Below are positions 14,878-32,921 of a stretch of DNA of 64,000 bases, piece by piece. Under the pieces are notes generated by a model, which was given only the letters and a program-made list of their open reading frames with translations, did not search any database and was not told the DNA's origin. The first letter of the stretch is position 1, and each line of letters opens with the position of its first letter. The stretch covers positions 8,975-72,974 of IMG/VR virus record IMGVR_UViG_3300043036_000358, one strand, 5' to 3'. Made by a program: the position numbers and the translations under genes. The stretch comes from a virus (Duplodnaviria; Caudoviricetes).

Positions 14878-14914
14878 AAAAAGCCCCCGCGTTGCAAAAC
14901 TCGGGGGCTTTTTT
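14878..14914. terminator. Terminator closing the replication block (possibly bidirectional)
   Basis: AAAAAGCCCCCG / CGGGGGCTTTTTT. Confidence 0.85.
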
Positions 14915-15016
14915 GTCGTTAAAAATTGTCAGGGTGCGCCAATGCACTTGCCCAAAAATACCCTGCATAATTTCTTATTACCGTGCATTTTAACTCCTGG
15001 AACCCTAAAAGTTGGG

Positions 15017-15045
15017 TTGCAGTACATACCATTTTGTTGTATAAT
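15017..15045 (+). promoter_or_regulatory. Sigma70-type promoter of the accessory operon
   Basis: TTGCAG-17 nt-TATAAT, same -35 as the promoter at 5703. Confidence 0.75.
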
Positions 15046-15125
15046 TATATCAGTTCTTAAATTTTTAGGAGCTGCGCGATGATACGCAGTATCATATCAA
15101 TCCACTACACAGAGATTAATTTTAT

Positions 15126-16055
15126 ATGGATGATACTACAACTAGCGTACCTATTTCTACAGCAGCAGCTGAAGAAGCTATGGATGCGCTCAAGAAACAA
15201 GCTAGCTTTGCGGAACAATATTATGCAAAACTAGCATCTCAAGTTAAAGAAACCTTAAAGGAAAATAAAATGGCAGAAGTAATGACACCCGGTATGATTA
15301 TGGGTATGGGCAACGGCGGCGGTGATGGTTTATTTGGTGGCGGAGGCGGCTTAGTAGGTGGTCTTATCCTAGGAAGCCTATTGCGCAACGGTAATGGCGG
15401 ATTTTTAGGTGGTGATGGTAATGGTGCTGGTGCAGCACTAGGCGCAACACTACGTAACCCACCAGAACAAAACCAAGCTAATATGGATTTAATGGCTAGT
15501 ATTGGGCAAGTTGACAAAGCAGTTGCAGTTTCAACAGCAGCAATGGAAGCTTCACAAGCTCTACAAAGTTCTAGCATTGTTAGTCAACTAAACAACGTAG
15601 CTGGTTCACTAGCTTCTCGTGTTGACAATGTAAAAGATATTGTTAATGCTAATGCAGTTGCGCTAATGCAAGGTCAAGCAGCTATTCAGCAAAACATCAT
15701 GGAAAATCGTTATGAATTATCCAAGGATATTACTAACGATGGTGAAAAGACTCGTGCATTGATTACATCACAGTACGAACTAAACCTACAGCGTCAATTA
15801 GCTGATGCAAATGCAGCGATTATTGAACTACGTAGCCGTGAGTACAGTGGTAACACAGCACGTGGTATTGAAGTTACTACAACAAACAACATCAACCAGA
15901 TGCAACAACAACAGCAACAACAAGCTCAGTATGGTCAACTGGCCAATCTGATTTGGAGCTTAGGTCAAAGCATCCGTAACGATAACAGCGCAATCAACGT
16001 TGGTAGCGGTACACAAACTTCTACACCAACAAACACAAATACTAACATTCGTTAA
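15126..16055 (+). CDS. Gly-rich / coiled-coil / polyGln protein of unknown function; second in-frame start at 15270
   Basis: 309 codons with strongly biased phage-type codons; AAGGA RBS before internal ATG 15270. Confidence 0.8.
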   Translation: MDDTTTSVPISTAAAEEAMDALKKQASFAEQYYAKLASQVKETLKENKMAEVMTPGMIMGMGNGGGDGLFGGGGGLVGGLILGSLLRNGNGGFLGGDGNGAGAALGATLRNPPEQNQANMDLMASIGQVDKAVAVSTAAMEASQALQSSSIVSQLNNVAGSLASRVDNVKDIVNANAVALMQGQAAIQQNIMENRYELSKDITNDGEKTRALITSQYELNLQRQLADANAAIIELRSREYSGNTARGIEVTTTNNINQMQQQQQQQAQYGQLANLIWSLGQSIRNDNSAINVGSGTQTSTPTNTNTNIR

Positions 16056-16068
16056 TATTTAGGTTACT

Positions 16069-16103
16069 AAGCCCCCAAGACCACAAGTCGTGGGGGCTTT
16101 TTT
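16069..16103 (+). terminator. Internal terminator after the first accessory gene
   Basis: AAGCCCCCA / TGGGGGCTT stem followed by TTTTTT. Confidence 0.8.
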
Positions 16104-16117
16104 CATAAGGAATAAGA

Positions 16118-17047
16118 ATGTTATTTCAACAACAACAACAAGGTCCATTTGGCTGGCCAATGGGACCTTTTATACCTATAGCCCCTATTATTGATGACTG
16201 TGATTTATTTATCAACAGCATAGTAAACGGTCAACCAGGGCCGCCTGGACCAGCAGGACCAGCAGGACCAGAAGGGCCACCGGGACCTGAAGGGCCGCCA
16301 GGGCCGCCAGGACCTGGCAGTGTATCAAATTTTGCTGACTTTTTTGCACTAATGCCACCTGATAATGCAGCAACAGTTGCTGTGGGTGCTGACGTGGACT
16401 TCCCTCAAGATGGACCTACATCAGCTACAACTATTACCAGAATATCTCCTAGTTCTTTTAATTTAGCAGATATTGGCTCTTATTTAGTACAATTTCAAGC
16501 TAGCGTAGACGAAGCCGGACAGCTCATACTAACGCTAAATGGCGTTGATTTGGCCTATACTGTTAGCGGTCGTGCAACAGGAACTAACCAAATTGTCGGT
16601 ACAGTAATTGTTACGACTACTGTTGCAAATTCTGTTTTAACAGTACGCAACCCAGCAGGAAACTCAACTGCATTAACAATCACACCTAATGCTGGAGGCA
16701 CTAGACCTGCCTCTGCGCAGCTCGTAATTGTTCAGTTGAACGGAACTGGAGTAACTCCGGTAGCTCCTAGTCCTGTGCCTACAACTATTGTGACCACTAC
16801 ACCATATGCAGTGCTATTAACTGATTACTACTTAGCCGTAAACGTAGCAGGGCCAGCTAGTGTAGTATTACCGGTTGCACCCGTTGGTACGGTCTTTGTT
16901 GTAAAAGACACAGATGGTGATGCCAATATTAGCCCAATTACAGTAACTGCTAGCACTACTATTGATGGTACAGCTAGTGCACTTATTAACTCACCATACG
17001 GTAGCCTAACCTTTATATTTAACGGCACCGAGTGGAACATTGTTTAA
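16118..17047 (+). CDS. Short collagen-like repeat + BclA-CTD-like domain + C-terminal beta module
   Basis: About nine GPx triplets, then FADFFALMPPDNAATVA...SAQLVIVQL recalled as the BclA-type C-terminal domain of collagen-like proteins. Confidence 0.7.
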   Translation: MLFQQQQQGPFGWPMGPFIPIAPIIDDCDLFINSIVNGQPGPPGPAGPAGPEGPPGPEGPPGPPGPGSVSNFADFFALMPPDNAATVAVGADVDFPQDGPTSATTITRISPSSFNLADIGSYLVQFQASVDEAGQLILTLNGVDLAYTVSGRATGTNQIVGTVIVTTTVANSVLTVRNPAGNSTALTITPNAGGTRPASAQLVIVQLNGTGVTPVAPSPVPTTIVTTTPYAVLLTDYYLAVNVAGPASVVLPVAPVGTVFVVKDTDGDANISPITVTASTTIDGTASALINSPYGSLTFIFNGTEWNIV

Positions 17048-17056
17048 GGAACAAAC

Positions 17057-17455
17057 ATGTCATATACAAATAACCCAACCTCAATCCTAGCCGGTACAGG
17101 TATTACAGTAACACCAACAACAGGTACAGGTGCTAATACTATTACAATTAGTGCAACTGGAACACCAGTTCAAGCAGTGCAAATTGCTGTAGCAACACCA
17201 GTTACGGTAACAAATGCCGATGACATAGTAAGTGTTGAAGTACCAGGTCCTGTTGCTGTAGCAGTTAATCTACCTGCTGGCGTTACTGGACAAATATTTT
17301 ACGTTAAAGATGGACTAGGTTTAGCAGCACCTGCAACGCCTATTACTATTACTCCTGTTGCAGGTACCATCGATGGTTCGGCAACAGCTACTATTGACAC
17401 ACCTTATGGAGCATTAACCCTAGCGTACAGTGGTGTGCAGTGGTTAATATTGTAA
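17057..17455 (+). CDS. Small Thr/Val-rich beta-module protein
   Basis: AAGGA RBS; shares the LP.G..G....VKD..G...PIT...TIDG...PYG.L motif with neighbours. Confidence 0.75.
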   Translation: MSYTNNPTSILAGTGITVTPTTGTGANTITISATGTPVQAVQIAVATPVTVTNADDIVSVEVPGPVAVAVNLPAGVTGQIFYVKDGLGLAAPATPITITPVAGTIDGSATATIDTPYGALTLAYSGVQWLIL

Positions 17456-17456
17456 T

Positions 17457-17930
17457 ATGTCCTATACTAGACAACCTAACTCGGTACTAGCGGGTAGGGC
17501 TTTGGCCCAAAGTCCTGCTGCTAGTACAACATCACCACCTGGTGTAGTACCAGTTACACTTCATGCTAATATTTCAACTACGACTGAACTGGGCGTAGTG
17601 CAAGTTGGTAGTGGTTTAAGCATAACGCCACTTGGTGTGTTATCAGTAGAAACCGCAGGACTAGTACAAGTAAAAATAACTAATGTTAACTATACAGCAT
17701 TAGCTAGCGATTATTATATTGGTGCTAATAGTAATGGTATAACTATTACACTGCCAACAGGCGTTACGGGTAAAATTTACATAGTAAAAAATCAAGTAAA
17801 TGGAAACATAACTCTGGTAGGTACTGGTGGGCAACAAATCGACAGCAGCAATACTAAAACTTTAGGTTCTAATGATTGCGTTATTGTGTTATTCAACGGC
17901 ACTCGCTGGAGTATAATCTCAGAGGAATAA
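17457..17930 (+). CDS. Beta-module protein with a fibre-type TELGVVQVGSGLSI motif
   Basis: Paralogous N-terminus (MSYT..P.S.LAG) and C-terminal module shared with 17057..17455. Confidence 0.75.
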   Translation: MSYTRQPNSVLAGRALAQSPAASTTSPPGVVPVTLHANISTTTELGVVQVGSGLSITPLGVLSVETAGLVQVKITNVNYTALASDYYIGANSNGITITLPTGVTGKIYIVKNQVNGNITLVGTGGQQIDSSNTKTLGSNDCVIVLFNGTRWSIISEE

Positions 17931-17931
17931 A

Positions 17932-18369
17932 ATGGAAGAACTAAAACTTGCGCTTAAACGCGCTTTTGCAACAACTTATGCGTTCCTAGTAAAAGCCGAA
18001 AACTTTCACTGGAACGTAACAGGCCCAAACTTTGTGCAACATCACGAATTGTTTGGTAAAATATACGACGAGGTAGATGATGAGCTGGATGACTTTGCTG
18101 AGCGTTTGCGCGCTTTACGCTGTTATGTGCCTGCTAGTTTCGCACAACTTAGTGAAAATTCGGCGATTTTGGATACGTTGGAAATATTACCACCAACCGA
18201 AATGGTACGTACACTATACGTTGACAACGGAAAAATACACACGGCGCTAATGGCGGCCTATGCACTTGCTGAAACTGAAGGTGAACACGGACTTAGTGCG
18301 TTTTTAAGTGAACGCATTGATGCACACCGCAAACACGGTTGGATGTTGTATTCAACAATGCAACCATAA
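17932..18369 (+). CDS. dps: Dps-family ferritin-like protein
   Basis: FHWNVTGPNF..HH and D..AERLRAL ferroxidase signature; GWML C-terminus. Confidence 0.93.
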   Translation: MEELKLALKRAFATTYAFLVKAENFHWNVTGPNFVQHHELFGKIYDEVDDELDDFAERLRALRCYVPASFAQLSENSAILDTLEILPPTEMVRTLYVDNGKIHTALMAAYALAETEGEHGLSAFLSERIDAHRKHGWMLYSTMQP

Positions 18370-18370
18370 C

Positions 18371-18405
18371 AAAAAGCCCCTAACTAGCAATAGTTAGGGG
18401 CTTTT
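18371..18405. terminator. Bidirectional terminator between convergent blocks
   Basis: AAAAAGCCCCTAACTA-GCAA-TAGTTAGGGGCTTTT. Confidence 0.9.
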
Positions 18406-18407
18406 CT

Positions 18408-19046
18408 TTATAGTGGAGTATCTTCCGTGCTGTCAGTATCGTCTACGTCTTCGTAGTCAACTACATCTTCTGGTGCTAGTTCGCTGAATACTAAGACTAG
18501 TATATCACGATAAGGTTGTTCTACAAGATGTAAGTCTAGTAAGTAAGTATCAAGATGATTATTACGTAGCAACTGAGCATGGTACATAAACTGACCAAAA
18601 GCATCTAGTTGTTGCGAAATATTCTCATTTGCGTAGTTTTCTAGAGTCTGTGCAGCAGCCATTAGCATTACGTGTGGAATCTGTGATTTTGTTACAGTTA
18701 CTAAGCGCAGTGCTTTGGCTTCTCGTGCACGCATAATTTGATTACGCTTGGCTGTGCTCCAACTATAACCACCGTCTCCGCCCCATAAGTCCCAAGCTAC
18801 TCGACCCTTACTTGGAAAACCTTCTTCGCCGCTGCGAAAACCAGTTGCGGACTTATCTGGCTCGTGACGAGAGAAAAAGCTATACATGCGTAGCACAACG
18901 CTTTCCGATAGCGGTTCACGATCTTTTAGTTGATTAGCGCGTGCTAGCCCTACTAGTGTGCCACCAGGTTCACCATCTGCTTTCCATGCCAGGGCACGCT
19001 TGGCTGCTGTAGCCATGCCTGTTGTTGGTTTGTATGTTTTTGCCAT
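18408..19046 (-). CDS. Conserved phage protein (RMYSFFSRH / GRVAWDLWGGD domain)
   Basis: N-terminal ~100 aa carries a motif set recurrent in phage proteins; acidic tail. Confidence 0.7.
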   Translation of the reverse strand: MAKTYKPTTGMATAAKRALAWKADGEPGGTLVGLARANQLKDREPLSESVVLRMYSFFSRHEPDKSATGFRSGEEGFPSKGRVAWDLWGGDGGYSWSTAKRNQIMRAREAKALRLVTVTKSQIPHVMLMAAAQTLENYANENISQQLDAFGQFMYHAQLLRNNHLDTYLLDLHLVEQPYRDILVLVFSELAPEDVVDYEDVDDTDSTEDTPL

Positions 19047-20410: not shown

Positions 20411-20863
20411 TTAAATCTCCGGTTGTGGTGCTGGTTGTGGTGCTGGCTTGCCATTAATAAGTCTGATCTCTGCTAGTGCAGTACCATTAAAACCAGCTGT
20501 AGTAGATAACCCAGTATGAAATGTTGGTTCTTGGCGCGGCACATAGCTGGTTTTGGCAGCAGCTGCGGCATTGGCTTGAGCTTGTTTCATCATAGCCAGT
20601 GTAGCGTCTACTTCCTCCTTGCTGCCACCAGCCAACATAATTCCACTTAGAGTACCAGTTAAGAACGTGGCGATTGGAACAATTAACTCAAAAAACTTTT
20701 GGTCAATTGGTGAGATTGCGTTTAGTGGTTGTGTTACAAATATCAAGCTATAAAGAACAACAAACACAATACCTGTTAGTGTGAGGGCTAAGCACACTCC
20801 AATAAAGAACTTTAGGCGAGCCATTAGCTGCTCGTCGGTGTATAAGAAATCGTTACTTTGCAC
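20411..20863 (-). CDS. Two-TM membrane protein (holin candidate)
   Basis: Hydrophobic segments FFIGVCLALTLTGIVFVVLYSLIFV and LIVPIATFLTGTLSGIML; downstream of endolysin. Confidence 0.65.
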   Translation of the reverse strand: MQSNDFLYTDEQLMARLKFFIGVCLALTLTGIVFVVLYSLIFVTQPLNAISPIDQKFFELIVPIATFLTGTLSGIMLAGGSKEEVDATLAMMKQAQANAAAAAKTSYVPRQEPTFHTGLSTTAGFNGTALAEIRLINGKPAPQPAPQPEI

Positions 20864-21119
20864 AGGCTACTCCGGGGTTGGTTGCTTGAGGCACTACAGC
20901 ACCTTTTGGGTCTAAGCGCGGATCGCGCTGACCTTTAAAAATATGATCTGGACAAGTGCGTGTTACGTCGCAGATAGGTCGATGACACTGAGGTGTATCC
21001 CAGTTATCAGGATTCTGGCACGGGTATCTAAAACGATCACTACCAAAAAATGACAGTGCTATTGGTAACAACACAAGCAGCCCAAGCCACTTAAATAACT
21101 TTATATCATTCATTACCAT
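20853..21119 (-). CDS. Membrane-anchored Cys-rich periplasmic protein
   Basis: N-terminal hydrophobic stretch then FRYPCQNPDNW..PQC..PIC....TCP. Confidence 0.65.
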   Translation of the reverse strand: MVMNDIKLFKWLGLLVLLPIALSFFGSDRFRYPCQNPDNWDTPQCHRPICDVTRTCPDHIFKGQRDPRLDPKGAVVPQATNPGVACAK

Positions 21120-21601
21120 CTCCCAGCATTGCTGCCTAGTTCATAGAAGATCCCAGTAAGGTATATGCCTAAGGCTAGTACAACAGCTAAAATACTGCCC
21201 CAAAAAGCATTTTCTAGTAGCTTTGCGCGTCTTCTTAGCTTTTCTTTTTCAGCAGCTTCTCGGTCTTCTCGTAGTTTTTTACGAAGCTGTATAAACTCGT
21301 GGTAGCCGGCACTGCCCAACTCCTGCAGCTCACCATAAGTAAACATATGGTGAATTTCTTTTTCCATCTGCTGAAGTTGAGCTTTAGCAGCCATTATATC
21401 AAATGCCTGACCAGTAACAGAGCCAAGTACTTTAGCTCCAGGTCTAGAGCTTTTATTAATAGCTTCGGTTAAGTTTCCAGCATGGCTAGCCCACTTACTT
21501 AGTTGCGAGTAAATATCTTGAGCTTCTCGCCCAACTGCAATTGCTTTCTTAACTCCGTTAAAAGCAGCACTAGTTAAAGCTAGTATTGTTACTGGATCCA
21601 T
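21113..21601 (-). CDS. Hypothetical helical protein with C-terminal TM
   Basis: MDPVTILAL..AFNGVKKA N-terminus, charged helix, hydrophobic C-terminal segment. Confidence 0.65.
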   Translation of the reverse strand: MDPVTILALTSAAFNGVKKAIAVGREAQDIYSQLSKWASHAGNLTEAINKSSRPGAKVLGSVTGQAFDIMAAKAQLQQMEKEIHHMFTYGELQELGSAGYHEFIQLRKKLREDREAAEKEKLRRRAKLLENAFWGSILAVVLALGIYLTGIFYELGSNAGRW

Positions 21602-21613
21602 AATCCCGCTCCT

Positions 21614-22231
21614 TTAGGTATCTAATACGTGTAGTGCATGCTCATAATGCTTTATTCGGTCTTCAAGTCCAATAGTACCACCATTGATACGTTTGGTTAG
21701 TGTTAATATATCGCCACTATCTGCCCACTGATTTAGATTATTAGTTTCCCAAAACCAGCAAGCCGACTGCGCAGCGCCTTCAAATGTTTCTAAGTACTCA
21801 GCCGCCTCCTCAACACCGATGCCAAGACTAGCAGCAAACCAGCTGTAGTTATCGCGGCCGGTTAGTTGAATAAGCCCGCGTCCACAATATCTGTACCCAT
21901 CACCGGACTCTGGTGGCCCATTACCCATGCGGTTGGCGTATACAAGATTGGCAATTGCGGCTTGCTTGCCTGCATACTGCTGCGCTAGTTCGTCACTAGG
22001 AAAGTATTTAGGAAATATTTTGCGTAGCGTGGCTGCACGATAGTTTAGGTTTTCACGTAGTGCCGTAAACCCGCCGGACTCGTGCGCACACTGTGCTATA
22101 AAAGCTGCAATACGTTGTGGGGTATTGATTTCGTAGTCTGGCAGGAGTTTTGCGAGCGCACTATGCCAGTGCTTGACGTGTGAGTTTCGTGGCAGCAACT
22201 GCTGTAGTTGTTGTAGTGTTAGTTCGGTCAC
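21614..22231 (-). CDS. Endolysin, glycoside hydrolase family 19
   Basis: RIAAFIAQCAHESGGF, RENLNY, YANRMGNG, GRGLIQLTGR.NY, TKRINGG..GLEDR. Confidence 0.93.
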   Translation of the reverse strand: MTELTLQQLQQLLPRNSHVKHWHSALAKLLPDYEINTPQRIAAFIAQCAHESGGFTALRENLNYRAATLRKIFPKYFPSDELAQQYAGKQAAIANLVYANRMGNGPPESGDGYRYCGRGLIQLTGRDNYSWFAASLGIGVEEAAEYLETFEGAAQSACWFWETNNLNQWADSGDILTLTKRINGGTIGLEDRIKHYEHALHVLDT

Positions 22232-22488
22232 TTTAACCCTTCATGGATAATTTTTTGTTGCTGATACCATTCCTGCCATGCAGTTAATTTAACCACACAC
22301 TGGTAGTATTGAGTGTAGTTTTGGTTAACCACCTCGGCTACTTGGCTTAGTGTGGGGCTACTGGGTAACTGTTGTAGCTCACCACAAGCCTGCGTGCTTT
22401 GCAAGCCTGGGGCCTCTGGCCAGTGCTGCGTGACTGGCACAACTGAGGCGCAGCCGGTTAAAAATAGTGCTAGTAGTATAACTTTCAC
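22228..22488 (-). CDS. o-spanin (lipoprotein)
   Basis: Lipobox FLTGC, Pro-rich segment, NY..YYQC motif; overlaps i-spanin and endolysin by 4 nt. Confidence 0.8.
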   Translation of the reverse strand: MKVILLALFLTGCASVVPVTQHWPEAPGLQSTQACGELQQLPSSPTLSQVAEVVNQNYTQYYQCVVKLTAWQEWYQQQKIIHEGLK

Positions 22489-22904
22489 TTTGGTGCCTTT
22501 GCTGCACTATTATGTGCTGTAACAAACTCAACTGGTATTTGACAAGTTGCATCATGTTTTACAACTTCACGAGTAATGTACTCGGTAGTAGCTTCACCAC
22601 GTTGACGTATAACTTGAGTTTTGGTAATCACGCGTTCTTTTATTGTTTCGTTTACTTGTTGCGATTTAGCTTCTGCAACCTCAACTTTATGCTGCAAGTC
22701 TTTTGCGGCTTGTTGCCACACACCATCGGCGTATAAGAGTCCCATAATAAAAATTACGGCAAGCACTACCACACCACCGACTATTTTAATAGGCAACTGG
22801 TACGTTTTTAGTGGAACTAGTTGTGATAGAAAATAGCCGGAAAATCCCGCTAGCAATAGTAGCCCCCAAAACCAATCTGGAAAAATTTCTAAAATCCAAA
22901 ACAT
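22485..22904 (-). CDS. i-spanin
   Basis: N-terminal hydrophobic helices, periplasmic coiled coil, C-terminal CQIP; adjacent to o-spanin. Confidence 0.75.
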   Translation of the reverse strand: MFWILEIFPDWFWGLLLLAGFSGYFLSQLVPLKTYQLPIKIVGGVVVLAVIFIMGLLYADGVWQQAAKDLQHKVEVAEAKSQQVNETIKERVITKTQVIRQRGEATTEYITREVVKHDATCQIPVEFVTAHNSAAKAPK

Positions 22905-28674: not shown

Positions 28675-29991
28675 TTAACTTGTTAGGGCTTGTAGTTGAG
28701 TGTTTGTAACACGAGCAGGGTAGTAGGCAATCTTTTTTAACGTACCATTAAAAGCGCCTGCAGCAAACGTAAACTGAGTAACCGTAGGCACAACTCCTAC
28801 AATATCAGTTATTGGTGTTTGATCTGGTACAACGTAAGCAAAATCATTTGTCTTGTAGGCATAAGCATATTTTCTAAAGACGTTTGGCGTGACTGTAAAC
28901 TCAGCAGTATCTACATGATTTGTGTTACCAGATGTAACATAGAAGTCCGCACCAGAGTTAATAACAATACCACATCTCAATGTAATAAGGTTTGAACTAG
29001 TTGCGTCATCAACTCTTAGAATACTATTTGTTCCAGTTAATGGGAGACCTGCGAGAGTAAATTCACCATACATTGCCCCTTCAGCTTGGTTATACCAACT
29101 TGAAAAGTTTGTTCCAGTCATAATTGCAACATCTGCGGCGCGAGTAGCCTGTGCAGCCACTGTGGGGATGTAGCTAGTAGGAAAAGTTGCACTGGTAGTT
29201 GCAGTTCCTACCTCTGTTTGTTCGCCCCAAATAATAAAAGTCTGGGCTGTTCCGGCGCTGTCTGGGCGTGCAAATAATCTAACGCTGGTTGTATCTGCGG
29301 CAAAAGCAAACCAGTACCTATACCAGCCATTACCAACTGCTTGAGATCCAGAACCAAGAAGAGTTCCACTTGTTGCTGTAATTGCACCAGTTGTGGGATT
29401 AACAACTATATGACGACCAGCACCGGTATCATCACGAAGCATAATCGAGGTTGCTGTTCCGGCCTTAATGAACACAGAGTGACAATAATTTGTTGCGACG
29501 GTTGCGTTTACGGTTTGGTATATACCAAGACCACTATCAGCAGTAACTGTATCTGCTGATACTGTGCCATCTGGAGCAACTGTTGTGTTGCTTGTGACTG
29601 TTACACCCGCACTTTTTGTCCAGGCTACGTTATCAAACTGTGCAGAGTAAGTCAGCAAGTTTGTTCGCTGTTCTTCAATCAACAATCCTAGTGATTCGTC
29701 TGTAGCTGGGTTGTGATCAAATCGCGGCACACCAGATGCGGCTGTTTGCATAACGCCCAATTGGTTATAGTAAGTTGCCACACTAGCGCGGGTAAAAGTA
29801 ATGCGAGGATCAAGTTGTCTAGTATTAGCAAAATCAAGCAGCAGCGTTGGCTTGCTTGCTGGATAGTTGCTAAAACTCATTAACTGTGTGAGATCTGTGT
29901 TTAAGTTAATAAAGTTATTGTCTAGCTCTGTATTAGTAAGGGGACGTGCAACGGATGTATCCCCTGTTTGGCGAGTAACTATGGTTGCCAT
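28675..29991 (-). CDS. Fibre/spike protein with lectin-like beta-sandwich
   Basis: LLLDFA..LDPRITFTRAS, GLLIEEQRTNLL, PTSYIPT..AQATRAAD motifs; N-terminal RPLTN.ELD.NF anchor. Confidence 0.72.
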   Translation of the reverse strand: MATIVTRQTGDTSVARPLTNTELDNNFINLNTDLTQLMSFSNYPASKPTLLLDFANTRQLDPRITFTRASVATYYNQLGVMQTAASGVPRFDHNPATDESLGLLIEEQRTNLLTYSAQFDNVAWTKSAGVTVTSNTTVAPDGTVSADTVTADSGLGIYQTVNATVATNYCHSVFIKAGTATSIMLRDDTGAGRHIVVNPTTGAITATSGTLLGSGSQAVGNGWYRYWFAFAADTTSVRLFARPDSAGTAQTFIIWGEQTEVGTATTSATFPTSYIPTVAAQATRAADVAIMTGTNFSSWYNQAEGAMYGEFTLAGLPLTGTNSILRVDDATSSNLITLRCGIVINSGADFYVTSGNTNHVDTAEFTVTPNVFRKYAYAYKTNDFAYVVPDQTPITDIVGVVPTVTQFTFAAGAFNGTLKKIAYYPARVTNTQLQALTS

Positions 29992-30015
29992 GAGTATCCC
30001 TTAAACTATTAAAAA

Positions 30016-30480
30016 TTAAGCTATTGTTACTTTCCAAGTAATTACTAGCGTATCTAGTGCTTCTTTGTTAATAACTGGAAACACTGTGCGGCATAGCATT
30101 GTACCGCTTGTAAGAGCATTGAAAATACCTGCTTCGCTAATAGCGGCAGTTGCAGCTGGTACGTTAGGACCAAAAGTGGCAACATACTGAATTGAGTCGC
30201 CAGCTAACGTTGTGGTTACAATTGTAGTTGAGTCTAGCACAACTCGCGCACCAAGTGGTGTAGTTAGCGCAGTTTGAGCTGTTGCTGCTGCTGTAGCACC
30301 ACCACTACCAACACCCATGTGTGTCATTACAGTAGCAGTGGCATCCTTCATACGGCTAGCAATATACGCTAAGCCAGCGGTTACTACTAAGTTGGTCTCA
30401 TCTTGTTGTTTGATGTTACCGTTTTGATCCGTTAGTACCAGTGTTAAGGTACCTTTGGCTTTAATTGAATCATTTACCAT
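30016..30480 (-). CDS. Putative virion structural protein (tail collar/baseplate-like)
   Basis: NLVV..G..YIASRM, AISEAGIFN..T.GTMLCRTVF.VINK...DTL.ITW. Confidence 0.65.
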   Translation of the reverse strand: MVNDSIKAKGTLTLVLTDQNGNIKQQDETNLVVTAGLAYIASRMKDATATVMTHMGVGSGGATAAATAQTALTTPLGARVVLDSTTIVTTTLAGDSIQYVATFGPNVPAATAAISEAGIFNALTSGTMLCRTVFPVINKEALDTLVITWKVTIA

Positions 30481-30490
30481 GATATATCCT

Positions 30491-32287
30491 TTAAGAAAAA
30501 TTGGTGTTAGTTCCTACGTACCCAGCAGTTGTATATGTGCTAGCAGTGTAGTTTTGGTTATTAGCGAAACCACTGTCAGTATTAACAAGTGTTTCTTGAA
30601 AAAATCGATTTCCAAACTTAAAAAACGAAATTAAGTCTAGGCTAGACACAGTCTCAGTTCTGGCTTTATTTATTAATAGGGTACGTCTTTCAGTATTACT
30701 GGTGTAGTCAACCACACGTTTACCTACACTGGCTATCTGATCATCGTCTGTGTTGGCTACACCAAAGAAGTCGTCTGTGGCATCTACGCCATCCAAGAAC
30801 GCTCTGTTAAAAGCCGTAGTTCTGGTAAATAAGTCACTAGCATCAGCGGCCTCTGTTATTGGCTTGCCAAACAGCATAGATTCTTGATCTGCTGCAGTCT
30901 TTGCTTCCAGTAAACTTTTGGCAAAACTAATTGTTTTTTGATCTGCTGTAGTTTTTGTTTCTGTAACCGCTTTATTAACCCGCAGCGTTTTTTGATCAGA
31001 AACAATTTGCGGTGTTTCGGTTAGGGGCTTAGTAAACGTCCAGGCTTCTTGATCTGCGACAGTTTTTGCTTCCAGTAAGGGTTTTGTAAAACTCAGAGCT
31101 TTTTGATCTGATGCAGTTTCTGTTTCTGTAACTGCCTTGTTAACCACCAGCGTTTTTTGATCAGAAACAATTCTGGGCGTTTCAGTTACAGCCTTAGTAA
31201 ACGTCCAGGCTTCTTGATCTTGAGCATCGGCAGCTTCAAATAAGCGCCTGCTAGTACGTACGGCTATTCGATCTACTGCAGTTTTTGTTTCTGTAACCGC
31301 TTTACCAACTCGCAGCGTTTTTTGATCAGAAACAACTTGCGGTGTTTCACTTACAGCCTTGGTAAAGGCCCAGCTTTTTTGTTCTGCGGTAGTTTGTGAT
31401 TCTGCTATAGCCCTATTAAAAACAACAACTCTGCTAAATATATCACCAATAGTGCTTACTTCTAGCAGTGCTTTAGTATAAGTTTTATTAAGTAAGTCAA
31501 GGTTATTGATATAGTCAGCCACGCGTTTACCTACGCTGGCTATCTGGTCATCGTCTGTATTAGCCACGCCAAAGAAATCATCTGTGGCGTCTACACTATC
31601 TAAGAACACTCTGTTAAATGCTGCAGTTCTGGTAAATAAGTCACTAGCGTCAGTTGTTTCTGAGACCGCCTTACCAAAACGCAGGGTTTTTTGGTCTGCT
31701 ACAACACTTGCTTCCAGCAATTTCTTGCCAATATTTAATATGTCTTGATCTTGTGCAGTTTTTGCTTCTGCAAGTACTTTACCTAAAGATACTTGTTTGA
31801 TATCAGATGCATCTGCTAGATCCGTTACAGCCTTAGTAAGTTTAATAACTCTGTACGCGTCACTTGCTATTTTTTGTTCTAGTAGTGATTTACTTACACG
31901 TTTTGAGAATCGTTCAGAACTACTTAGTGTTTCTCGTAAGCCCTTACCAGATCGTAGGGTTACCTTATCAGTTGCAGCATAGTATTCTTCCAATCTTTTA
32001 AATAAACCTGGGCTAGGAACGTTTTCCTCACCCATATTTACCACTGTACCAAATACTTTTACAGCATCTACTGCCGTATTTATTGTAGTGCTGCTATTTA
32101 CAGCCGTACTTAAAGTTGTACTAGTTACATCAGTTACTTTTGTGGTATATACGGATGTATTTACCACGGTTTGGCTGCTTACATTAGTAGTTATATTCGT
32201 GGTAGTTACATCTGTTACTTTTGGAGTGTATGTTGGTGTAGTAGCACTAACTATTTGTGCTGTAGTTTGTACTATTTTATCAGACAT
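30491..32287 (-). CDS. Repeat-built structural protein
   Basis: About 20-aa K.(V/L).E.....D...... units, plus a ~48-aa duplicated block. Confidence 0.7.
   Translation of the reverse strand: MSDKIVQTTAQIVSATTPTYTPKVTDVTTTNITTNVSSQTVVNTSVYTTKVTDVTSTTLSTAVNSSTTINTAVDAVKVFGTVVNMGEENVPSPGLFKRLEEYYAATDKVTLRSGKGLRETLSSSERFSKRVSKSLLEQKIASDAYRVIKLTKAVTDLADASDIKQVSLGKVLAEAKTAQDQDILNIGKKLLEASVVADQKTLRFGKAVSETTDASDLFTRTAAFNRVFLDSVDATDDFFGVANTDDDQIASVGKRVADYINNLDLLNKTYTKALLEVSTIGDIFSRVVVFNRAIAESQTTAEQKSWAFTKAVSETPQVVSDQKTLRVGKAVTETKTAVDRIAVRTSRRLFEAADAQDQEAWTFTKAVTETPRIVSDQKTLVVNKAVTETETASDQKALSFTKPLLEAKTVADQEAWTFTKPLTETPQIVSDQKTLRVNKAVTETKTTADQKTISFAKSLLEAKTAADQESMLFGKPITEAADASDLFTRTTAFNRAFLDGVDATDDFFGVANTDDDQIASVGKRVVDYTSNTERRTLLINKARTETVSSLDLISFFKFGNRFFQETLVNTDSGFANNQNYTASTYTTAGYVGTNTNFS
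30720..31660 (-). repeat. Internal duplications in the 598-aa gene
   Basis: ~125 nt blocks at ~30720-30845 and ~31525-31650 (DLFTRT.AFNR.FLD.VDATDDFFGVANTDDDQIASVGKR) and tandem ~39-aa units between them. Confidence 0.85.
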
Positions 32288-32294
32288 AACTACC

Positions 32295-32921
32295 TCATGT
32301 TACAGTTTGGTTTACGTCTACAGTTACATCAGTTGGACTAAATAATATTTCAACCATACCACGCACTGGCTTAAATGTACGCGGAAAATTCATAGAATCT
32401 GTTGGTTCCGTTACTCGCAGCTCAAAAAATCCGTATACCGGAGAGTCTACTTTTGGCTGAACGCTCCAAGTGGCTGCCATAGTGGACGGAAATCGCAGAT
32501 AAATAGTGTTTAGTGTAGTTTCAACCCACAGTGGGTCTACAGTTGGTGCCCCGGTGGTAATACCAGCGCCTTTTGTAAGTTTATAGTATTTGCCTACGTG
32601 TAGCACTACTTCTTCCTTGTTGTACGCTGATCCAGCTCCCCACGTACCTATTAATCGGGGAATTCTAATAACCAGTTTATCTTGTACGCCGCCGACTCGT
32701 ACATCCACAGGTATTTCGGTTTGACCGCTGACGTTAGCTGCTTCAACAACTACCGCTTCGTACACATAGTTCAGATTTGAGGGGGTTTTTATTGACGCGT
32801 CTTCAACGAAGTTAAGTACTATTGGGAATTCTAGTTGCTCACCTTTTACAAAACTCCACAACACAGCTCCACCATCGGCAATAAGATCTAGTGTTGTATT
32901 AGTTAGTCTTGATCTTGCCAT
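32295..32921 (-). CDS. Putative structural protein with a small aromatic carbohydrate-binding-like insert
   Basis: W.AG..Y....VV...GKYYK......T...P....LW segment resembles CBM5/12-type modules. Confidence 0.5.
   Translation of the reverse strand: MARSRLTNTTLDLIADGGAVLWSFVKGEQLEFPIVLNFVEDASIKTPSNLNYVYEAVVVEAANVSGQTEIPVDVRVGGVQDKLVIRIPRLIGTWGAGSAYNKEEVVLHVGKYYKLTKGAGITTGAPTVDPLWVETTLNTIYLRFPSTMAATWSVQPKVDSPVYGFFELRVTEPTDSMNFPRTFKPVRGMVEILFSPTDVTVDVNQTVT

Follow-up and report, generated by a model that had tools for sequence, protein, structure and literature searches.

What do five genes lying outside the tail cluster of a tailed phage build when they combine a long helical protein, a collagen-like protein, two small beta-module proteins and a Dps? 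We addressed this question for positions 15126-18369 (plus strand) of a 64,000-nt stretch of viral DNA, hereafter the window, which comprises bases 8975-72974 of the 72,974-nt IMG/VR record IMGVR_UViG_3300043036_000358 (completeness estimate 68%). The protease-capsid protein of the window is only ~34% identical to its counterparts in T5-like phages, and the window therefore represents a distant T5-like siphophage without a close cultured relative. The five open reading frames (ORFs) are referred to as G1 to G5, in the order of transcription. A sequence-only reading of the same DNA had suggested that their products might build an unconventional structure, for example an exosporium- or occlusion-like coat, linked to stress protection. 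We favor, with a probability of about 0.45, a different interpretation, in which the block is an accessory virion fibre/adhesin cassette with a passenger Dps. The fibre proteins and the Dps are of known kinds; what is new is the uncharacterised family to which G1 belongs and its coupling to a re-assorting set of collagen/adaptor fibre genes.

Domain composition of G2, G3 and G4

In our alignment, G2, G3 and G4 were paralogous over their C-terminal 90-100 residues, and this part constitutes a shared adaptor module of the T4 gp9/gp10 type. G3 (132 residues; 17057-17455, plus strand) consists of an N-terminal MSYTNNP...LAG peptide, a short Thr/Gly-rich stretch, and the module (residues 40-132). 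G4 (157 residues; 17457-17930, plus strand; PHROG 37034) starts with a related peptide, MSY..P..LAG being common to both proteins, and continues with a shaft motif (..LGVVQVGSGLSITPLGVLSV..), which we take to be of the tail-fibre type, followed by the module at residues 70-157.

The AlphaFold2 model of G3, calculated from a 60-sequence alignment, had a predicted local distance difference test score (pLDDT) of 87 overall and above 95 over the module. A Foldseek search of the PDB with this model returned 9f4b (3e-5), 1qex (3e-5), 7rej/7rfo/7rfv (~ 2e-4), and 2fl8 (6e-3), and all of these, as well as 5iv5, were matched with a probability of 1.00. The proteins behind the best matches were the gp10-like baseplate protein of Klebsiella phage KP1, T4 gp9, N-terminal fragments of CBA120 TSP4, an Acinetobacter phage tailspike, and T4 gp10; the capsid spike of Pa223 was a weak match at rank 11. 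When a sequence profile of the module was compared with the PDB, the hits were significant but marginal (gp34-like 9f4a, 4.9e-5; TSP4, 1.2e-3; gp10, 5e-3; gp9-like, 0.04), and those to PHROG 967/972/20556 were weak. In BFVD, 281 viral models matched the module at E ≤ 1e-3, among them collagen-repeat proteins, pectate-lyase tailspikes, and giant-virus proteins. Pfam, NCBIfam, and PADLOC returned no match for G3 or G4, and the PDB none for G4. The module was also considered as DUF4183, the domain of the F-ENA subunit, and this candidate was dropped since Pfam gave no match.

The module thus has the beta-sandwich fold of the T4 gp9 middle domain, gp10 and the gp34 N-terminus and of the XD domains of CBA120 TSP2/TSP4. 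In these branched receptor-binding complexes, as in G2-G4, several paralogous proteins carry the domain. In solved phages, the gp9/gp10-type domain serves other fibres or tailspikes as a docking platform. The present proteins differ from the T4 and CBA120 systems in that the domain is C-terminal, either on proteins of 132-157 residues (G3 and G4) or behind a collagen stalk and a knob (G2), rather than N-terminal and proximal to the virion; moreover, the genes lie outside the tail cluster and no enzymatic tailspike body is present. G2-G4 are thus ordinary modular phage fibre/adaptor proteins in an unusual arrangement, with a C-terminal adaptor, a very small size, and a location away from the tail genes. 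The proposed exosporium- or occlusion-like coat was not borne out, as the module maps to a known virion fold, an outcome that the sequence-only reading had itself named as counting against it, and no higher-order coat was seen.

G2 (309 residues; 16118-17047, plus strand) is the most composite of the three. Its Pro/aromatic-rich leader (residues 1-37), which is also rich in Gln and ends with D-x-D-L-F-I-N-S in the leader alignment, is followed by ten GXY collagen triplets (38-67), a BclA/C1q-type knob (67-207), and the adaptor module (220-309). The triplets directly precede the knob and matched Pfam Collagen with E = 4.4e-4, below the gathering score. The protein matched PHROG 30509, "collagen like minor tail", with 3e-17, and all PHROG names returned for G2 referred to tails or fibres. 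For the knob, the best PDB matches were 9h38 (E = 4e-7 over residues 85-206, with no contribution from the collagen part) and BclA itself (1wck, 1.8e-5); 9h38 is the crystal structure of the F-BclA C-terminal domain (PMC12357932). Over the knob region (window 16316-16738), a search that returned 80 bacterial homologues (loci L108-L187) gave 72-82% identity to collagen-like proteins with C-terminal knobs across Bacillota, including Paenibacillus, Clostridium, Desulfosporosinus, and C. difficile; further matches came from Legionella drancourtii, Myxococcota, Bacteroidota (Dyadobacter), Chloroflexota, and Terriglobia. In 80 of 81 bacterial homologues, the knob forms the extreme C-terminus, and in none is it followed by the module, whereas in G2 it is internal and precedes a module of ~ 100 residues; G2 is therefore a chimera. 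An orthologue at locus L078 ends at the knob. The unusually high conservation of the knob across phyla suggests horizontal movement of this module, here into a phage with Gram-negative-type lysis genes.

The overall order of a Pro-rich leader, GXY repeats, and a C1q/TNF-type knob is that of the BclA family (B. anthracis BclA, B. thuringiensis F-BclA/F-Anchor, and the BclA-type proteins of C. difficile). The relation between G2 and G3/G4 also mirrors the F-ENA logic, in which a collagen protein ends in the domain of the small subunit, and the small subunits bear N-terminal hook peptides. There are differences, as the knob of G2 is internal, only ten triplets are present, and no ExsF-type partner, signal peptide, or exosporium was found. 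The resemblance of the leader to BclA leaders is one of style. The content labels first assigned from the sequence, namely a collagen protein with a BclA-type knob, paralogues of a beta-module, and a Dps, all agree with the profile and PDB matches and the alignment.

The G1 family and its transcription unit

G1 (309 residues; 15126-16055, plus strand) comprises an optional N-terminal helix (1-48), a core beginning at M49, a Gly-rich segment (~ 55-105), a long helix (113-290) with a polyQ run (258-268), and a C-terminal tail ending with NTNTNIR. AlphaFold2 modelled residues 113-290 as a single unbroken helix (~ 180 residues, pLDDT 80-94) and left the Gly segment disordered. From this model, we infer an α-helical coiled-coil rod of ~ 25 nm, its length and oligomeric state as well as the physical role of G1 being deduced rather than observed. 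In the family alignment, the Gly-rich hydrophobic segment GGLIGGLILGSLLRN and the LRNPPEQ and DGEKTRALI motifs are all invariant, as are every Gln of NQMQQQQQQQ and the tail AINVGSGT..NTNTNIR. The protein lacks Cys and a signal peptide, carries little charge, and is rich in Ala, Ser, Gln, and Asn, a composition typical of extracellular fibres.

M49 is preceded by its own internal Shine-Dalgarno sequence, AAGGA (window 15256-15272, with the ATG at 15270), and many homologues begin exactly at the equivalent position (MAE..TP), so that a long and a short isoform are possible. The core is always found at the end of the protein, while N-terminal extensions vary from 0 to ~ 340 residues and consist of a helix, a beta domain, or a prion-like region rich in Gly, Tyr, Arg, and Ser. 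The longest example, P0186 (L091:10001-11728), has ~ 340 N-terminal residues of this prion-like kind, also rich in Gln. The relatives P0253 and P0146 carry an N-terminal beta domain of ~ 110 residues, and in P0139 a tape-measure-like helical hydrophobic region replaces the Gly segment. No fused forms longer than 541 residues were found, which is weak evidence.

Within the range of lengths searched, this viral family comprised more than 2,161 clusters at 90% identity, all "hypothetical"; at 50% identity, there were 417 clusters, none of them annotated. The only match was PHROG 9288, "unknown function"; Pfam, NCBIfam, and PADLOC gave none, and the ESM Atlas returned unnamed viral clusters and coiled-coil look-alikes with TM-scores below 0.5.

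We also asked how the Gly segment compares with membrane-spanning helices. Its best 19-residue stretch had an apparent insertion free energy (dGapp) of +3.0 kcal/mol (family median +2.9, range +1.9 to +5.8), compared with −3.1 to +1.0 kcal/mol for real transmembrane (TM) proteins of the window, on a simple insertion scale with approximate values. A classical TM helix is thus unlikely on this sequence-derived measure. The identification of G1 as a holin, spanin, or other TM protein was rejected, as it failed the hydrophobicity test, and the window already holds a complete lysis set.

The gene stands at the head of five co-oriented ORFs, of which G2-G5 are spaced only 1-9 nt apart. The unit upstream, a ribonucleotide reductase (RNR) gene and a 56-residue ORF, is closed by a rho-independent hairpin with a U tract (14878-14913, plus strand; −23.8 kcal/mol, z = −5.2), which is conserved in relatives. 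A σ70-type promoter, GTTGCAG-N17-TATAAT, was read from the sequence at 15016-15045 (plus strand; −35 TTGCAG at 15017-15022, −10 TATAAT at 15040-15045). In 12 related loci, the −10 hexamer is invariant and the −35 almost so; the promoter call rests on this conservation because the bare consensus was no commoner in the window than chance (13 matches against 8.3 expected). Ahead of the promoter, ~ 100 nt are nearly invariant in relatives and contain the short palindromes GTGC..GCAC and TGCA..TGCA. The 5′ untranslated region of the G1 mRNA folds into two hairpins (15051-15074 and 15079-15095, plus strand), and relatives differ by compensatory changes in the first stem (TTAAA/TTTAG versus ACAAG/TTGTG); the hairpins may stabilise the mRNA. 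Taken together, the conserved stretch and the leader (window 14916-15125) may combine a regulator site with an mRNA-stabilising element.

A second hairpin lies 3′ of G1 (16069-16105, plus strand; −20.4 kcal/mol, z = −4.8) and is suited to act as an internal terminator or attenuator. Under a strict criterion, 38 of the 61 distinct related loci have this hairpin as well, and its stem covaries among them; several further loci have one with a weaker T tract. The third hairpin (18372-18405; −23.8 kcal/mol, z = −7.0) is a bidirectional terminator, at which the plus-strand genes ending at 18369, including a class II-type RNR, converge with minus-strand genes. A simple terminator scan listed only this last hairpin, since the stems of the other two are interrupted. 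The sequence-only description of five co-oriented genes with their own promoter, bracketed by terminators and with one more after the first gene, was therefore accurate (z from −4.8 to −7.0 for the three hairpins). It had also likened the layout to that of the capsid and tail-tube genes; hairpins do follow those genes in the window, and the equivalence itself is plausible. The layout fits strong expression of the first gene and attenuated expression of the translationally packed genes behind it, in line with the earlier expectation of one major and several minor products.

Past the bidirectional terminator, the minus strand encodes a 212-residue protein, PhoH, the lysis set, fibres, the tail, and the head. 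The lysis set (20411-22904, minus strand) contains a GH19-type endolysin (21614-22231), nearby TM proteins as possible holins, an o-spanin look-alike of 86 residues with the lipobox LTGC (22228-22488), and an Rz-like i-spanin look-alike (22485-22904) that overlaps it.

Linkage of G1 and the fibre genes across phages

Linkage was counted over the 80 loci closest to the window by G1 similarity, 70 of which were usable (at least 1.5 kb downstream of G1); 41 of these are T5-like, and 29 have none of the flanking genes of the window and thus non-T5 backbones. An adaptor-module gene directly followed G1 in 64/70 loci, a figure that overstates the independent events because the loci were picked by G1 similarity and near-duplicates are included. 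A leader and collagen gene was present in 59/70. Among the non-T5 backbones alone, a module gene was found in 25/29. At least two module genes occurred in 28 of the 70 loci, in many combinations, and in the relatives of G2 only residues 1-45 are conserved, the C-terminal part having been replaced. Within the G1 subfamily of the window, G1 and the fibre genes are tightly coupled. At L053 and L037, the cassette comes after terL and before homologues of window genes 28675-32921, which the window has among its tail and fibre genes, and in a diverged cassette at L102, short G1-like coil proteins are paired with a collagen and module protein. Many variants have an extra gene of 187-196 residues between module genes (L015:9424-9987, L042:9189-9752, L053:4096-4659, L083:9218-9808, and others), which is absent from the window and had no match in Pfam, PHROG, or NCBIfam; Pfam searches with neighbouring and fused proteins of other loci were uninformative.

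The earlier statement that T5 has no such block agrees with our searches, as megablast and tblastn searches with the block and with G3 matched no cultured phage, and G1 matched no cultured T5-like phage; the G2 search of cultured phages was also blank, which is of little weight because the low-complexity filter of BLAST was on.

In the fibre cassette that we favor, G1 would be produced in excess, since the conserved hairpin behind it attenuates read-through, and would form an extended coiled-coil rod. G2-G4 would be minor trimeric fibre/adaptor proteins assembled from exchangeable modules, that is, an N-terminal docking peptide, a collagen or beta shaft, and a C-terminal T4 gp9/gp10-type domain, with the BclA/C1q-type knob as an extra exchangeable module in G2. 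The leader of G2 would dock on G1. G1 is its most likely partner, because the leader is retained when the remainder of G2 is exchanged and accompanies G1 from one unrelated backbone to another. The assembly might then consist of branched, readily re-assorted surface fibres on the head, neck, or tail that serve reversible adhesion to host or matrix surfaces, while G5 would be an independent Dps for iron/peroxide handling that shares the transcript in this phage lineage alone. The linkage, the domain identities, and the operon anatomy are observed directly; we infer the virion location, the trimer state, and every contact among G1-G4.

A long helical rod with conserved ends, encoded outside the main structural cluster and probably highly expressed, has parallels among the trimeric virion appendages with coiled coils or TNF knobs, such as T4 fibritin, the phi29 head fibre gp8.5, the collagen-like decoration protein gp12 of SPP1, and Pa223 gp52. 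No sequence or profile similarity of G1 to any of these was found, and its Gly segment, polyQ, and C-terminal tail are without counterpart in them. As the Pa223 capsid spike gp52 shows, a capsid can bear trimeric TNF-knob fibres (bioRxiv 10.1101/2025.06.11.659172).

Besides the sampling bias noted above, several observations weigh against the fibre cassette. Comparison of G1 with the PDB by sequence and profile gave only chance-level matches to syntaxin and OPRTase and no likeness to a virion protein. Distant homologues occur in four cultured phages, At2, phiPLPE (gp38, "putative tail-fiber protein"), KLER1-1 (gp74), and FL-1, and profiles of the module and the leader found no match anywhere in these four genomes. 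Distant homologues often form two-gene islands with a small acidic ORF after G1, and the one in KLER1-1 lies in the early region. Conversely, L101 (3749-4249) and L106 (3770-4267) encode collagen and module proteins with a different, Arg/Pro-rich leader and lack G1; unrelated helical proteins precede the collagen and module gene there, in the place of G1. Since the four cultured phages and these two loci show each element alone, G1 can work without fibres and such fibres without G1, and the fibre type can evidently pair with other partner sets. Moreover, the motifs of G1 are common to phages with unrelated capsids and tails, which argues against a phage-specific docking site on the virion, and in solved phages the gp10-like domain lies near the N-terminus, proximal to the virion, not at the C-terminus as here.

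Much of this is what would be expected if two unrelated things shared one hot spot, which is the main rival to the fibre cassette and which we hold to be possible but doubtful. G2-G4 would then be virion fibres that dock directly, and G1 a moron-like protein acting in the infected cell or its envelope, for instance in lysis timing, superinfection exclusion, or envelope remodelling, without touching the fibres. The homologues without any fibre gene fit such a protein, as do their self-contained islands, in the early region of KLER1-1 and between modules in FL-1. At L091 and L190, G1 closes the late operon, behind tail-fibre genes and a block with a DUF5675 gene, which we take to be lysis genes; at L025 and L074, it is preceded on its own strand by lysin, spanin, and PhoH. 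The invariant GxxxGxxxG pattern of the hydrophobic Gly-rich segment suggests membrane affinity, and conservation across unrelated morphotypes would suit a host-directed target. The position of phiPLPE gp38 speaks for the fibre cassette instead: it has the major head gene on one side and the neck genes on the other, and adjoins virion proteins confirmed by mass spectrometry. What speaks against an independent G1 is that it moves together with the leader-collagen gene into unrelated backbones, and that the covarying attenuator hairpin links it to the fibre genes in one transcript. The Gly segment also fails the simple TM test, is disordered in the AlphaFold2 model, and is not accompanied by a signal peptide; the lysis set of the window is already complete, with an endolysin, two spanin-like ORFs, and TM proteins; and the composition is typical of an extracellular fibre.

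The same leader that would dock on G1 in the fibre cassette could instead be captured by it only transiently. G1 would in that case be an assembly factor, a trimeric coiled-coil template or chaperone that nucleates trimers of G2-type proteins and is absent from the finished particle, in a role like that of T4 gp57A or fibritin. The conservation of the leader together with G1 and the excess of G1 over the fibres are compatible with this, and collagen helices need a nucleating trimer domain. Nevertheless, we consider it quite improbable, because the BclA-type knob and the gp10-like module are trimerisation domains themselves, G1 is present in phages without fibre genes, and the known fibre chaperones are much smaller and less conserved than G1.

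The Dps gene and implications for phage surfaces

G5 (145 residues; 17932-18369, plus strand) is a Dps-type mini-ferritin, with matches to Pfam Ferritin PF00210 (1.3e-17, 64.5 bits against a cut-off of 24.5) and PHROG 3636 (2e-30). In the PDB, 47 solved Dps-type sequences matched at E ≤ 1e-3, the best being 8ff9 (1.6e-19). The ferroxidase ligands read from the translation are H26 (in H26-W27), H38, D53, and E57, with the canonical +12/+27/+31 spacing, an assignment made against the Listeria Dps motif. G5 thus keeps the His/His/Asp/Glu ligands of phage Dps-like proteins (PHROG 3636) and bacterial Dps. Its alignment to 8ff9 starts at residue 7 versus 18, so that the N-terminus is ~ 11 residues shorter, and DNA binding is doubtful with so short a tail.

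A Dps gene was found on the cassette strand in 25/41 T5-like loci and in 0/29 of the others. In relatives, it stands before or after the fibre genes, and some have a second copy, encoded on the other strand as a fusion with the N-domain of the 212-residue neighbour (18408-19046, minus strand; PHROG 2859, unknown function). The fused part corresponds to the N-terminal ~ 110 residues of that protein (L056:9999-10808, L059:5765-6583, L064:2552-3346), which hints at a functional link between this domain and Dps. Being restricted to T5-like loci and variable in position and strand, the Dps is best described as a lineage-specific passenger; its candidacy as a structural partner of the cassette was discarded on this comparative distribution. 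The gene set had been expected to be conserved together, which holds for G1 with the collagen/module genes and fails for Dps. The link to stress protection likewise found no comparative support, as Dps is not part of the conserved set.

This distribution bears most directly on the idea that all five products form one non-canonical assembly, an exosporium- or occlusion-like coat or an intracellular scaffold, tied to Dps-based stress protection. It is consistent with the single transcript and its major/minor expression layout, with the full BclA grammar of G2 (Pro-rich leader, collagen, C1q-type knob), and with the prion-like low-complexity N-termini of some G1 relatives, such as P0186. However, Dps is absent from every non-T5 cassette and is missing on the cassette strand in 16/41 T5-like loci. 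The module common to G2-G4 has the fold of a virion fibre adaptor, no ExsF/ExsY-type basal-layer family appeared when the block and the genes around it were scanned for known families, and there was no evidence of a lattice-forming protein. Of the explanations considered, this is the least supported, and we regard it as very improbable.

The fibre cassette with a passenger Dps also has a more far-reaching form, which we think unlikely as a whole. G1 might found a new class of phage surface protein, an abundant coiled-coil "basal" rod common to unrelated tailed phages of Gram-negative hosts. BclA-type fibres would dock on it via their Pro-rich leader, subunits of the G3/G4 type would stack on the gp10-like ends, and the result would be a "hairy nap" built by exosporium/F-ENA logic, with a knob exchanged with Firmicutes.

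The G1 family is among the larger phage protein families without an assigned function, and it combines odd invariant features (a segment resembling a Gly zipper, the polyQ run, and the C-terminal tail) with a tie to hyper-variable collagen and adaptor fibre genes. The G2-type collagen trimerisation knob, in turn, is a module that moves between phyla and across the divide between virus and host. If G1 is not a virion protein, the family still represents an unexplored, highly expressed accessory function of phages. If the products are virion fibres, the cassette would be a portable, backbone-independent adhesion module, with consequences for host range and for the attachment of environmental phages to particles or biofilm.

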